DNA from: Escherichia phage RCIP0319
DNA: 64,000 nt
Sequence record: PV464738.1
Strand: one strand, 5' to 3'
Both the position numbers and the translations under genes were made by a program. Shown here piece by piece: positions 60,221 through 62,587 of the stretch; position 1 is the stretch's first letter; every line of letters begins with the position of its first letter. The notes beneath the pieces were generated by a model that was given only the letters and a program-made list of their open reading frames with translations, was not told the DNA's origin and ran no database searches.

Positions 60221-62587
60221 TTATTTCGCTGCTTTTAGCGCGGCTATCTCTGCCTTGAGTTCATCGACTTGATTCAGAAGATTTTGAATCGCAGCCACCG
60301 CATCAAGAAGCATGACGTTTTCATCAATCGCCATTGTTTCTTTTCCTTCTGCGCTCTTGTAAACTCTCACGTACTGTTCATCAATTTCCTTTAGCTCCTG
60401 GGCAATAAAGCCTCTTCTGAGAGTCTCCTTCTTATCATAGTTGTATATGAATGATTTATATTCCATTCTCCTTATTTTTTCGATGGCGATGTCGGTGCTT
60501 ATTGAGTTGACTTCCTTTTTCAACCTGATATCCGATACTGGAGACTTGCTGAAAATGTAGTTTACAGTCCCGCTGTTGCTCCCAAATGTGATATCATAGC
60601 TTTCCGCATTGAAAGATGTGTTTCGTACAATGTCGCCATTAGGTTGGTTGCCAGAAGCAAAGTCATAATCGTAAACCTGAGATATGACCGCACTAGGATG
60701 GCTTGAGTCAGGGAATATTAATGCACCAAGAGATACAAAGTTTCTCCAACCTCCACCAGAAATACCAACGCCGCCGCCGACAAGACCTACATAACCACTC
60801 TGACTGGATGTCATCCAAGTGTTAGCAAGAGTCAAATATGTATTCCCAGGAGCATAACCTGTTGTGTTTGGGGTTAAACCTTTGTTGAACAGTATTTTGC
60901 CACTAAGTTTAAAATCCCATGTCGCAGCGTCAACAGGATTTTTATCATTTATGGTGGTGATTCTGGTTGACAGATCAACTTCATTTTGCCCTAAAAGCTG
61001 AAATGAAGACCTGTATTTGTCTGCGCCAGCAACTCTGTATTTGGAATCGATTCTGCCGCCAGTGATGTTTGTTCCAACTGGTGGTTCAGAAGAATCTCCA
61101 TTGATAACAGCCCATTGCGTATTCGCGGCAGCAAATCCACCAGATGCACGAATCACCCAAACGCCTACGAATGAGTTCGGCAGGACTTCATCATTGTTGC
61201 GTCCGTATATTGGATTGTACAAGGCCGCATTGAAATATATTTCCGGTACATAACTTATTGAGACCGTTGACCCTGTCCCATTTGGGATTTGCACAGTCTG
61301 TTTTGTTGCAAAAGCCCCCGAGCCGAATGATGTAGGTAGGCTTGCGCCAAGAAGTACTGATACATTTGATCTTCCCTGGATGTTTGGCAGGGATGCCTGG
61401 TATATTTTCAAATCTTCAGATGATATACCTCCATCGCCTCGTGCGAAAAGAGATCTAATGGACCCAGTTTGAACGCCGTTCCTGTCAGGCACTCGAAACG
61501 TCGTCGTTCCGTTGCCCAGAGAATAATTGCCGCGCTTAAGCGGGTCTGCAAGCCAGTCAGCATCGGCAATAGGGGAAAGCATTTGCGCATAAGCCCAAAG
61601 TTCAGGCCAGTCTGCACGATTTAACAATTGTCCGTCAGAAACGACTTCATACGGTTGAATATATGCACGGCTGTCACGCAAGTGAAAATCACCAACACCA
61701 TAGTTCATTACACCGTTCATGCTTGGCCCAACGGTGCCTGTGTTCACTAAGTTCTCGACCCAACGCTTGGTTGCGGCATCATGATCGTTTACTGGATCAC
61801 CAGCAAGCGGAGTTGATCCTTGTGGACGTATGTTAAGCCATGCTTGTGCATTGTCTGCTGAGCCTGTTCCGCCCATGGAAGTTGGGACGACGTTTTGATC
61901 AGCGACTGTTCCGAATCCAAATGCAGACTTCATTCCTTGAATGGTGGTTTGTCCGGTGCCGCCATTTGCTACAGGGATTACGCTGGCTGAATCAAAAACT
62001 TTTTTCCATGCCGACCATGAATTATTGGAGCTTGACGACCTGAAATATCGCTCTGGAAGATAATCGCCGGACTGGTAATCGGCATAGGCGAATGTCGTAT
62101 ATACTTGGACACAACCTTCTGGCCCATTCGCCTTTGTTTGAAAGACTTCGAGAATGCCTGCCGATTGAGTAGGATAATTCAATGATGGTGATGCAGCAGA
62201 GTTTGATGGTTGATAATACTGCCCGAACCAACTTCCTGTCAGCGCATTAAGATTTATACCGTTTGGTATATCACCAAAGTTTCGGACGGCACCAGTCAAA
62301 GTCGCAGCAGTGGTGCGAATGGAAAGCATATCACCCGCCGCCCATGCACGCGCTGCAGTACCTTCCTGTGCACGTTGCACGGTTAGGACGTTTCCAACCA
62401 CGGCTGTTACTGTGACTATTTCAAATTGGAGGCCTGTTGCAGCGTCGACGATTGTCGCCACTACACGCTCGTTTGCGCCCAAGGTCGGAAAGCCTGACCC
62501 TGAGCGAATTGTGATTGTTGTGTCTGAAGTCGTCGTTGGCTGAGCGAGCGCGACCTCAAAGTTGTTTTTGAATATTAGCCTTGGCAT
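60221..62587 (-). CDS. tail fiber/tailspike protein with C-terminal intramolecular chaperone (peptidase S74-like) domain
   Basis: 788 aa; C-terminal SDIRLKKEV...FIAQELKE...coiled-coil end typical of self-cleaving chaperone domains of fibres and endosialidases. Confidence 0.6.
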   Translation of the reverse strand: MPRLIFKNNFEVALAQPTTTSDTTITIRSGSGFPTLGANERVVATIVDAATGLQFEIVTVTAVVGNVLTVQRAQEGTAARAWAAGDMLSIRTTAATLTGAVRNFGDIPNGINLNALTGSWFGQYYQPSNSAASPSLNYPTQSAGILEVFQTKANGPEGCVQVYTTFAYADYQSGDYLPERYFRSSSSNNSWSAWKKVFDSASVIPVANGGTGQTTIQGMKSAFGFGTVADQNVVPTSMGGTGSADNAQAWLNIRPQGSTPLAGDPVNDHDAATKRWVENLVNTGTVGPSMNGVMNYGVGDFHLRDSRAYIQPYEVVSDGQLLNRADWPELWAYAQMLSPIADADWLADPLKRGNYSLGNGTTTFRVPDRNGVQTGSIRSLFARGDGGISSEDLKIYQASLPNIQGRSNVSVLLGASLPTSFGSGAFATKQTVQIPNGTGSTVSISYVPEIYFNAALYNPIYGRNNDEVLPNSFVGVWVIRASGGFAAANTQWAVINGDSSEPPVGTNITGGRIDSKYRVAGADKYRSSFQLLGQNEVDLSTRITTINDKNPVDAATWDFKLSGKILFNKGLTPNTTGYAPGNTYLTLANTWMTSSQSGYVGLVGGGVGISGGGWRNFVSLGALIFPDSSHPSAVISQVYDYDFASGNQPNGDIVRNTSFNAESYDITFGSNSGTVNYIFSKSPVSDIRLKKEVNSISTDIAIEKIRRMEYKSFIYNYDKKETLRRGFIAQELKEIDEQYVRVYKSAEGKETMAIDENVMLLDAVAAIQNLLNQVDELKAEIAALKAAK

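Follow-up and report, generated by a model that had tools for sequence, protein, structure and literature searches.

The gene at positions 60221..62587 on the minus strand of the analysed window, a 64,000-nucleotide stretch of DNA from Escherichia phage RCIP0319 (PV464738.1), very probably codes for the variable tail fibre that determines host range in a Wifcevirus myophage, a fibre of the 'T-shaped' class known from Bas98-101. The open reading frame occupies exactly these coordinates, starts with ATG and forms a complete coding sequence for a 788-aa receptor-binding tail fibre; the match to PHROG 6921 ('tail fiber protein') spans the whole protein (E 8.6e-220), and its orthologs include Bas99_0109, vBEco4M7_27 and ECML-117 AFO10457. 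Inspection of the sequence shows a ribosome-binding site, GAGGA (62595..62599, minus strand), 7 nt upstream of the ATG. At the other end, a consensus scan placed a terminator-like hairpin (60194..60213, minus strand) 8 nt past the stop codon, with a ΔG of -13.6 kcal/mol (z -3.1) that none of 200 shuffles equalled. Immediately upstream of the gene, a scan for sigma-70 promoters gave no convincing candidate. The initial annotation had placed the gene on the opposite strand, far from the main tail module, and correctly so: the tail/baseplate module lies at ~7.1-22.5 kb on the plus strand, ~38 kb away, and the neighbours of the fibre gene are small genes without assigned function. The same isolated locus is kept in Bas99, vB_Eco4M-7, ECML-117 and an independent 68-kb metagenomic contig. 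A 113-aa membrane protein encoded upstream was considered as a possible partner co-varying with the fibre allele and rejected, as it is 97-98% identical across phages with different alleles.

RCIP0319 has a Wifcevirus genome, whose structural half is ~98% identical to phage WFH. Judged by sequence, the 788-aa fibre is an ortholog of the Wifcevirus 'T-shaped' receptor-binding tail fibre (Humolli et al. 2025, PMC11990801), which is represented by ManiWeber/Bas99 'Gp114' (Bas99_0109), vB_Eco4M-7_27, ECML-117 gp24 and the WFH/WFC orthologs. The isolated locus, flanking genes, length, domain order and C-terminal S74 intramolecular chaperone (IMC) are the same. With the Bas99 fibre, the RCIP0319 protein shares an anchor at 96% and an RBD1 core at 95% identity, whereas identity drops to 31% in cassette 1, 20-23% in cassette 2 and 38% in the IMC, and is 57% overall. 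The fibre class of Bas98-101 was described with dependence on O16 O-antigen, and two tail fibres have already been published for the genus (PMC11990801). Moreover, orthologs have been detected by mass spectrometry in CsCl-purified phage, both in ECML-117 and in vB_Eco4M-7, where the fibre was the top-scoring protein (PMC7048862).

We compared the RCIP0319 fibre with 120 alleles and obtained a mosaic of conserved and variable segments. The N-terminal anchor (aa 1-100; 62288..62587, minus strand, as are all segments below) is of a single type, with a median identity of 97% and only one cluster when alleles are grouped at 70% identity, and presumably attaches the fibre to the baseplate; the same domain has been named baseplate anchor (PMC11990801). 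Its residues 4-97 match residues 4-97 of PDB 8jov chain 1 (E 3.5e-7 for this stretch), a 439-aa 'Putative tail fiber protein' in an entry of 18 chains, on which a literature search returned nothing. Next comes a pyocin-type knob (aa ~101-225; 61913..62287) with hypervariable loops at aa ~141-200, similar in both sequence and fold to the knob of the R1/R2 pyocin fibre. The conserved shaft and RBD1 core (aa 226-377; 61457..61912), which includes a collar-like motif, is again uniform in type among the alleles; its identity is 95% to Bas99 and 75-79% to LtfA/LtfB of the T5-like phage DT57C. Pfam Collar gives sub-threshold matches here in 43 of 51 alleles (best E 0.0018).

The two cassettes that follow are where alleles diverge. 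Variable cassette 1 (aa 378-466; 61190..61456) has only 19-44% mean identity to other alleles and falls into 31 types among the 120 alleles; the RCIP0319 type is shared with P0001 only. DNA homology to Bas99 ends at nt 61458, near the start of this cassette, which we infer to form the distal part of RBD1 and to determine its specificity. A conserved island (aa 467-498; 61094..61189), 67-77% conserved across alleles, separates it from variable cassette 2 (aa 499-684; 60536..61093), the distal β-rich receptor-binding domain 'RBD2'. At the DNA level the island matches Bas99 (82.5%) and DT57C (78%), and the match to ECBP2 begins there; it is likely a recombination anchor. Cassette 2 has 8-35% mean identity to other Wifcevirus alleles, 20-23% in the case of Bas99, and is 77-84% identical to gp13 of the podovirus ECBP2. 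It occurs in 19 types, with that of RCIP0319 found otherwise only in P0001 and P0002.

On these sequence comparisons, the RCIP0319 fibre is a new mosaic allele of an already described protein class. The best full-length match among GenBank phages is 57% identical, and the exact protein is not on record in public assemblies. The nearest protein, P0001, is 99% identical and is encoded on one Logan contig (run ERR11172834); it is the only other database protein with the same combination of cassettes.

The relationships of the fibre extend to phages of two other morphotypes. Among the distal tail fibres of Gordonclarkvirinae podoviruses (ECBP2 gp13, phiEco32 gp15, EP335 gp13), ECBP2 gp13 is 63% identical to RCIP0319 aa 264-782. 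EP335 gp13, which combines an IMC with a central segment resembling gp12, cleaves itself and binds O157/O26 cells (PMC8217332), is linked to the RCIP0319 fibre through ECBP2 gp13, the annotated tail fibre of a phiEco32-group phage, a group within which gp13 homologues have been reported (PMC8217332). Over aa 1-225 these podovirus fibres are only 16-18% identical, lacking the anchor and knob of the Wifcevirus fibre; they sit on a separate proximal fibre, and the virion morphotype differs as well. The second set of relatives comprises DT57C LtfA and LtfB, the branched lateral tail fibres of a T5-like phage (PDB 8HQZ chain d; Golomidova 2016; Ayala 2023), which likewise carry a C-terminal S74 domain. 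The DNA anchors shared with DT57C correspond to aa ~249-377, aa 467-498 and the 3′ end with the terminator: the shaft/RBD1 region is shared with ltfA/ltfB at 78% DNA identity, and the 3′ end of the fibre gene together with the hairpin is 87% identical to the 3′ end of ltfB. In contrast, the siphovirus fibres attach by their N-terminus in another way, through an LtfC ring, and cassette identity is only 19-36%. DT57C LtfA/LtfB have an O-antigen-specific function (PMC4728585), and we considered whether the O22-like specificity of DT57C carries over to the RCIP0319 fibre. We rejected this transfer, because the shared part, aa ~249-377, is the scaffold conserved in all alleles and the cassettes are so dissimilar, and also because 8HQZ resolves LtfA at its N-terminus only.

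Structural modeling was informative for parts of the protein. An AlphaFold2 monomer model built from a 51-sequence alignment had a mean pLDDT of 49, with values below 50 at aa 1-101, 201-398 and 569-684, which leaves the knob, aa ~500-560 and the IMC as its only usable parts; cassette 2 was predicted as all-β. PDB 8hqz chain d aligns with the fibre at E 1e-112, but the entry resolves only the N-terminus of LtfA and thus offers no structural template for the region shared with RCIP0319. The published class is described as a T-shaped homotrimer in which a gp12-like RBD1 (T4 short-tail-fibre tip/collar) is combined with a T5 pb1-like RBD2 ahead of the IMC (PMC11990801). The gp12-like RBD1 has been reported for Bas99 (PMC11990801), to which RCIP0319 is 95% identical over aa 226-380. 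In our hands, hhalign of RBD1, a region where the model is unreliable, did not match T4 gp12 (probability 0.4%), and sequence and profile searches of PDB returned neither T5 pb1 nor T4 gp12 at E≤10.

At the C-terminus, the initial annotation had read a chaperone-like domain beginning at SDIRLK and had proposed a profile search for S74; profile, motif and fold all bear this reading out. The IMC/Peptidase S74 domain (aa 685-788; 60224..60535) ends in a long helix (aa 756-787), and the search gives an above-threshold match at the extreme C-terminus: aa 685-740 score 44.2 bits against Pfam PF13884 (Peptidase_S74), whose gathering cut-off is 22 (E 2.3e-11). The domain is present in all 51 aligned alleles. 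Within the predicted autoproteolysis motif S685-D-I-R-L-K690 (60518..60535), Ser685 would be the scissile residue and nucleophile and Lys690 the general base; both are invariant in 121 of 121 sequences, though the flanking residues vary. The dyad of T5 pb1, Ser1264/Lys1269, has the identical S-x4-K spacing (PMC4690869), and in EP335 gp13 cleavage at the equivalent Ser has been demonstrated by ESI-MS (PMC8217332). The fold matches the solved structures 7dc3, 3gw6, 3gud and 4uw8. Thus, the RCIP0319 fibre has the Pfam family, S-x4-K dyad and α/β fold with terminal helix in common with the canonical IMC proteins, namely the K1F endosialidase C-terminal domain (3GW6), T5 pb1 (4UW8), the GA-1 neck appendage (3GUD) and MyRF ICA (7DC3). 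The GenBank record of the vB_Eco4M-7 ortholog already carries a PF13884 note.

Taking the domain identities, invariant dyad, mosaic map and orthology established here as a starting point, we propose the following mechanism. Three fibre chains would trimerise, their folding nucleated by the S74 IMC (aa 685-788) through its terminal coiled coil, and the conserved anchor (aa 1-100) would dock the fibre on the baseplate. The knob (aa ~101-225) and the shaft/collar (aa 226-377) would bear the two cassettes (aa 378-466 and 499-684) as exchangeable receptor-binding units, whose most likely ligands are O-antigen or other surface glycans. After folding, Ser685, activated by Lys690, would cut the chain at or next to Ser685, splitting the protein (computed mass 84.6 kDa) into a mature fibre of ~72.6 kDa and a released chaperone fragment of 12.0 kDa. 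New specificities may arise by recombination at the conserved DNA anchors that flank the cassettes, anchors common to siphoviruses (DT57C) and podoviruses (the phiEco32/ECBP2 group).

The fate of the chaperone bears on an alternative, in which the IMC remains with the virion, be it uncut or cut but still bound, and caps the distal domain, so that RBD2 is masked in the free virion and primary receptor binding falls to the knob and RBD1. In CsCl-gradient-purified vB_Eco4M-7, IMC peptides are indeed abundant: 500 of 2013 peptide-spectrum matches (PSMs) stem from this domain and span 83% of it, with 4.6 PSMs per residue against 2.3 for the mature part and median peak areas of 8.5e8 against 4.6e8. 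An attached IMC is also known to block receptor competition in T5 pb1 (PMC4690869), and the BASEL authors note that RBD2 phylogeny does not track host range (PMC11990801). However, the vB_Eco4M-7 preparation also held a helicase, a glyoxalase-family protein and a protease/scaffold protein and was therefore not pure virions, while in ECML-117, in the same study, the last peptide of the mature part was seen and none of five IMC peptides. The two public datasets thus disagree on whether the chaperone leaves the Wifcevirus virion, and because in vB_Eco4M-7 IMC peptides are as abundant as those of the mature part, its removal can be stated only as a prediction for the genus. The invariant Ser685/Lys690 dyad and the demonstrated cleavage of the EP335 homologue also speak against the cap, as does the hypervariability of cassette 2, which is expected of an exposed receptor-binding surface. 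Overall, we regard such capping as unlikely. A broader proposal, that specificity resides in three modules exchangeable independently of one another (cassettes 1 and 2 and the loops of the knob, aa ~141-200) and that at least some Wifceviruses retain the S74 cap, whose release would be a regulated unmasking during adsorption, is compatible with both the IMC abundance in vB_Eco4M-7 and the RBD2 phylogeny, but seems to us improbable.

The preferred reading also places the fibre directly on the baseplate. Instead, the conserved HxH fibre or some other structural protein could carry it as a branch, in the way that LtfA carries LtfB in DT57C and a proximal fibre bears the gp13-type fibres of phiEco32-like podoviruses; the homologous distal halves of DT57C and Gordonclarkvirinae are mounted on proximal fibres (PMC4728585, PMC8217332, PMC11990801), and the Wifcevirus wedge protein, at 912 aa compared with ~500 aa in Pbunavirus, is extended at its C-terminus by a long region that might provide a site. 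Against this, the fibre begins with a conserved domain of 100 aa that is homologous to the same end of the putative tail fibre solved as 8jov, and the BASEL authors predict direct attachment to the baseplate (PMC11990801), which makes branching quite unlikely. That the fibre is an endosialidase-like enzymatic tailspike or depolymerase is extremely improbable: endosialidases are the proteins in which the S74 domain was originally defined, and the phage SP13 ortholog is named 'endo-N-acetylneuraminidase' in GenBank, but the 788-aa fibre contains no detectable catalytic glycosidase or lyase domain of the sialidase β-propeller or β-helix depolymerase kind.

The initial annotation had counted at least four fibre-type proteins and suggested multiple receptor specificities from that number. 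Two of the four, the 788-aa fibre and the product of 20680-22464, are tail fibres; the other two are not. The product of 1-882, described as a repeat-rich fibre, is a head fibre: it matches Pfam Phage_head_fibr (29.3 bits, cut-off 24.6) and the phi29 head-fibre chains, and RefSeq annotates it as 'head fiber protein' in WFH. At the DNA level no tandem repeats were found within 1-1000, and the protein has only two copies of the A(T/S)ASVLGGVK motif, which is typical of head fibres. The supposed split fibre at 17804-20669 is a baseplate wedge/triplex protein carrying DUF2612, with an N-terminus homologous to Pbunavirus E217 gp45 and to '9b45 gp46 Baseplate wedge 2'. In WFH and Bas99 a single 912-aa gene encodes it; in RCIP0319 nothing splits it but an exact tandem duplication of 127 nt, probably an artefact of assembly. 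The HxH fibre at 20680-22464 is genuine, with eight HxH motifs and an N-terminus homologous to Pa193 gp47, but its 96.5% conservation across the genus argues against a variable receptor specificity. Multiple specificities do not follow, then, from four fibres, but may exist within the 788-aa fibre, in its three independently assorting variable modules.

The understanding of S74 fibres is unchanged by this protein. What it corrects is the count of receptor-binding proteins, which a head fibre and a duplication-split baseplate protein would inflate. The 788-aa fibre is the likely host-range determinant of a genus that is related to the therapeutic Pbunaviruses and is considered for biocontrol of E. 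coli O157/STEC. The cassette map offers junctions for specificity swaps among myo-, sipho- and podovirus fibres, at aa ~377/378, 466/467, 498/499 and from ~771 through the terminator.

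The initial annotation had placed a tail fibre with a C-terminal chaperone domain at 60221–62587 on the minus strand, and the ORF listing bore out this gene call in every particular: the reading frame has 788 codons, an ATG start and exactly these boundaries. A GAGGA ribosome-binding site lies 7 nt 5′ of the ATG, and a stable hairpin (dG −13.6 kcal/mol, z = −3.1) begins 8 nt past the stop codon. PHROG 6921 'tail fiber protein' spans the product end to end (E 8.6e-220). Tail and baseplate genes occupy about 7.1–22.5 kb on the plus strand, and the fibre gene is indeed encoded on the opposite strand, about 38 kb off, surrounded by small genes without assigned function. 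The same neighbourhood, comprising an upstream gene for a 113-aa signal-peptide/TM protein and small ORFs downstream of the fibre gene, is found in Bas99, vB_Eco4M-7, ECML-117 and a metagenomic contig.

In its structural half, the window shows 98% identity to Escherichia phage vB_EcoM_WFH (WFH) and 97% to other Wifcevirus myophages; megablast coverage of the fibre gene is only about 40%, at 84–88% identity. Among 50,697 GenBank phage records, the best full-length protein match is that of Bas99 (57% identity). In a 5.8-billion-protein collection, only one protein (P0001) matches at 99%; it is encoded on a contig of 68,093 nt that comes from run ERR11172834. Below it, identities fall to 88%, 73% and 63%, followed by a long tail near 55%; the matches are mostly on contigs of about 68 kb, with some on shorter fragments. 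Exact-sequence lookup found no record of the window protein itself.

The core reading in the initial annotation was right, but the biology of this kind of fibre has already been published. Wifceviruses were reported to carry two tail fibres, one of them conserved, with a T4 gp37-like HxH tip (Humolli et al. 2025; PMC11990801). The other is 'T-shaped', with an N-terminal baseplate anchor, a Gp12-like receptor-binding domain (RBD1), a T5-like RBD2 and a C-terminal intramolecular chaperone (IMC); its RBDs vary greatly and undergo horizontal exchange with Gordonclarkvirinae and Tequintavirus (PMC11990801). All four Wifcevirus isolates in that study needed the O16 O-antigen (PMC11990801). For vB_Eco4M-7, whose genome was published in 2020 (PMC7048862), the GenBank record of the ortholog notes 'Chaperone of endosialidase domain (PF13884) found', and NCBI lists homologues under the name 'pyocin knob domain-containing S74 family peptidase'. 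Given this published class and the existing PF13884 annotation, the window fibre is a new allele of a described protein kind. Two structural assignments made in that study were not reproduced here: for the Gp12-like domain, profile–profile comparison of the window fibre with T4 gp12 gave no detection, and Pfam Collar was sub-threshold only, in 43 of 51 alleles. What our analysis adds is a quantitative cassette map with a third variable module (the knob loops), a disagreement between public mass spectrometry (MS) datasets regarding the IMC, and the correction of two mis-called 'fibres'.

We derived the mosaic map by aligning the window fibre with 120 database representatives and by pairwise comparison with selected homologues. 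The N-terminal anchor (aa 1–100) is of one type, with a median identity of 97%; over residues 4–97 it matches the N-terminal part of a 439-aa 'Putative tail fiber protein' whose structure is solved (PDB 8jov, 18 chains). A conserved shaft/collar core (aa 226–377), likewise of one type, is 95% identical to Bas99 and 75–79% identical to DT57C LtfA/LtfB. Variable cassette 1 (aa 378–466) comes in 31 types, and that of the window is common to P0001 only. A conserved island (aa 467–498; 67–77% conserved across alleles) separates it from variable cassette 2 (aa 499–684), for which there are 19 types. The window's type of cassette 2 is shared with P0001 and P0002 only; it is 77–84% identical to gp13 of podovirus ECBP2, but only about 20% identical to Bas99. 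The IMC (aa 685–788) has 14 types, with its final eight residues conserved. The receptor-binding half is covered by no experimental structure; in 8HQZ, DT57C LtfA is resolved at its N-terminus only.

The modules assort independently in these alignments: homologue P0002 has cassette 2 and the IMC as in the window with a different cassette 1, and homologue P0004 has the same knob and core but differs in both cassettes. DNA homology to Bas99 ends at nt 61458 (aa 377), returns for 80 nt at aa 473–499, and sets in again at aa 771, continuing past the stop codon and the terminator into the downstream genes. In siphovirus DT57C, each of the three anchor segments (aa ~249–377, aa 467–498 and the 3′ end) has a counterpart at 76–87% DNA identity. 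The DNA matches to podovirus ECBP2 cover a portion of the RBD1 core (aa 286–387; 68%) as well as aa 473–686 (72.5%), and do not extend to the 3′ end of the gene. The independent assortment of modules bears the mark of cassettes exchanged by homologous recombination at the conserved anchors and between virion morphotypes. At the 3′ end itself, window positions 60196–60274 (−) are 87% identical over 79 nt to the end of DT57C ltfB (3759–3837 of the DT57C sequence L005). The final ~17 fibre codons and the stop codon fall within this match, as does the terminator hairpin; the IMC coding sequence just upstream of it is unrelated to ltfB at the DNA level. The fibre 3′ end thus looks like a recombination anchor common to phage families.

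The profile search for the chaperone was positive: residues 685–740 score 44.2 bits (E 2.3e-11; gathering score 22) with Pfam Peptidase_S74 (PF13884, 'chaperone of endosialidase'). The SDIRLK string begins at residue 685, and Ser685 and Lys690 are invariant in 121 of 121 sequences, against a conservation of only about 38% in the remainder of the IMC. The S-x4-K spacing is that of Ser1264/Lys1269 in T5 pb1, in which autoproteolysis is lost in a Ser-to-Ala mutant and receptor binding is masked by the chaperone when it stays attached (PMC4690869). The podovirus homologue EP335 gp13 was shown to be cut at the corresponding Ser and to bind O157/O26 cells (PMC8217332); this protein is tied to the window fibre only via ECBP2 gp13, a phiEco32-group fibre 63% identical to window fibre aa 264–782. 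The IMC is also the best-predicted part of the structure model (pLDDT 82–91), with a terminal helix at aa 756–787. Cleavage would yield a 72.6-kDa mature fibre and a 12.0-kDa chaperone (calculated masses).

Published LC-MS/MS of CsCl-gradient phage preparations (Necel et al. 2020; PMC7048862, Supplementary Tables S2/S3) detected both vB_Eco4M-7_27 and ECML-117 gp24, orthologs of the window fibre, which speaks against the protein being absent from virions. The former was the top-scoring protein, with 34 peptides, 80% coverage and 2013 PSMs. We mapped its peptide table onto the sequence, in which the IMC part comprises aa 671–779. One reading of the result is that the chaperone is kept on the virion as a cap, since IMC peptides are as abundant as those of the mature part: coverage is 83% versus 80%, PSMs 500 versus 1513 (4.6 versus 2.3 per residue) and median peak area 8.5e8 versus 4.6e8. 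However, this preparation was not pure virions, as it also held a helicase, a glyoxalase-family protein and an abundant protease/scaffold protein. The published table contains no peptide spanning the cleavage site. In ECML-117 gp24, at much lower depth, the last mature-part tryptic peptide is present and 0 of 5 predicted IMC peptides are. Retention appears unlikely, and the invariant dyad, the homologue evidence and the ECML-117 peptides make the predicted C-terminal processing likely in Wifcevirus.

We consider it highly probable that the gene encodes a trimeric receptor-binding fibre, anchored by aa 1–100, on which a variable knob and a pair of exchangeable, glycan-binding cassettes would be displayed. 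Its S74 chaperone would fold the fibre and then cut itself off at Ser685, and host range would evolve via cassette exchange at conserved DNA anchors common to sipho- and podoviruses. Attachment through another fibre, not directly to the baseplate, seems rather improbable, and an enzymatic tailspike is very hard to credit, as no catalytic domain was found in the window fibre.

The initial annotation counted at least four fibre-type proteins and suggested multiple receptor specificities. Two of them, 60221–62587 and 20680–22464, are tail fibres; the other two are a head fibre (1–882) and a baseplate wedge protein (17804–20669). The phage has two tail fibres, and it is the hypervariable one at 60221–62587 that has the potential for several specificities. 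A genuine tail fibre is also encoded at 20680–22464: homology to Pa193 gp47 'Tail fiber' extends over its first 372 aa (E 1.2e-31), and it carries eight HxH motifs at aa 436–561. Its orthologs in Bas99 and WFH are 96.5% identical to it, which points to a conserved role, not to variable specificity. The mechanical ORF list starts this gene at GTG 20623 (20623–22464, +), overlapping the preceding gene; the orthologs annotated in WFH and Bas99 fit the start at 20680 (594 aa), as initially annotated.

The frame at 1–882 (+) is cut by the window edge and encodes the last 293 of the 306 aa of a head fibre. The protein has matches to Pfam Phage_head_fibr (29.3 bits; cut-off 24.6) and to phi29 head-fibre chains (gp8.5), and its ortholog in the WFH RefSeq record is annotated 'head fiber protein'. 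Conservation within the genus is 97%, and in the MS data of vB_Eco4M-7 the ortholog is very abundant and ranks third by score. What had been described as a repeat-rich fibre has two protein-level copies of the A(T/S)ASVLGGVK motif and no DNA tandem repeat.

Several smaller observations concern gene content. In the contig carrying P0001 (ERR11172834_2177; 2819–6047 of L007), the gene calls place one 304-aa gene between a portal-like gene and a 45-aa ORF upstream of the protease gene. At this position Bas99 has two genes, for head morphogenesis and the head fibre; the difference could be one of gene content or of gene calling. Next to the fibre gene, the product of the 113-aa ORF (62626–62967, −) has a signal peptide plus a TM segment at its C-terminus, and it falls into no Pfam or PHROG family. 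It is 97–98% identical between phages whose fibre alleles differ, and so does not co-vary with the receptor-binding cassettes. The 38-nt gap between the two genes contains a perfect TATAAT hexamer (62617–62622, −), 29 nt upstream of the fibre ATG and with no recognisable −35 element; the hexamer may be part of a phage-specific promoter, middle or late, or have arisen by chance.

Finally, the product of 17804–20669 (+), which carries DUF2612, is a wedge/triplex protein of the baseplate, homologous over its first ~186 aa to E217 gp45 'Triplex' and '9b45 gp46 Baseplate wedge 2'. These Pbunavirus proteins are ~500 aa long, whereas the Wifcevirus wedge has 912 aa; the remaining ~700 aa gave no family assignment. 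Pbunaviruses appear to be without an extra S74 fibre, which in Wifcevirus may dock on this genus-specific extension of the wedge protein. The gene is a single 912-aa ORF in WFH and Bas99. In the window it is split (17804–18838 and 18852–20669) because nt 18690–18816 are repeated exactly at 18817–18943, and this 127-nt tandem duplication shifts the frame; deleting one copy restores the uninterrupted 912-aa ORF. A k-mer size of 127 is commonly used by SPAdes. The duplication, judged from its length, which equals this k-mer size, is most likely an assembly artefact, originating from an untrimmed end overlap of a circular contig after genome rotation.
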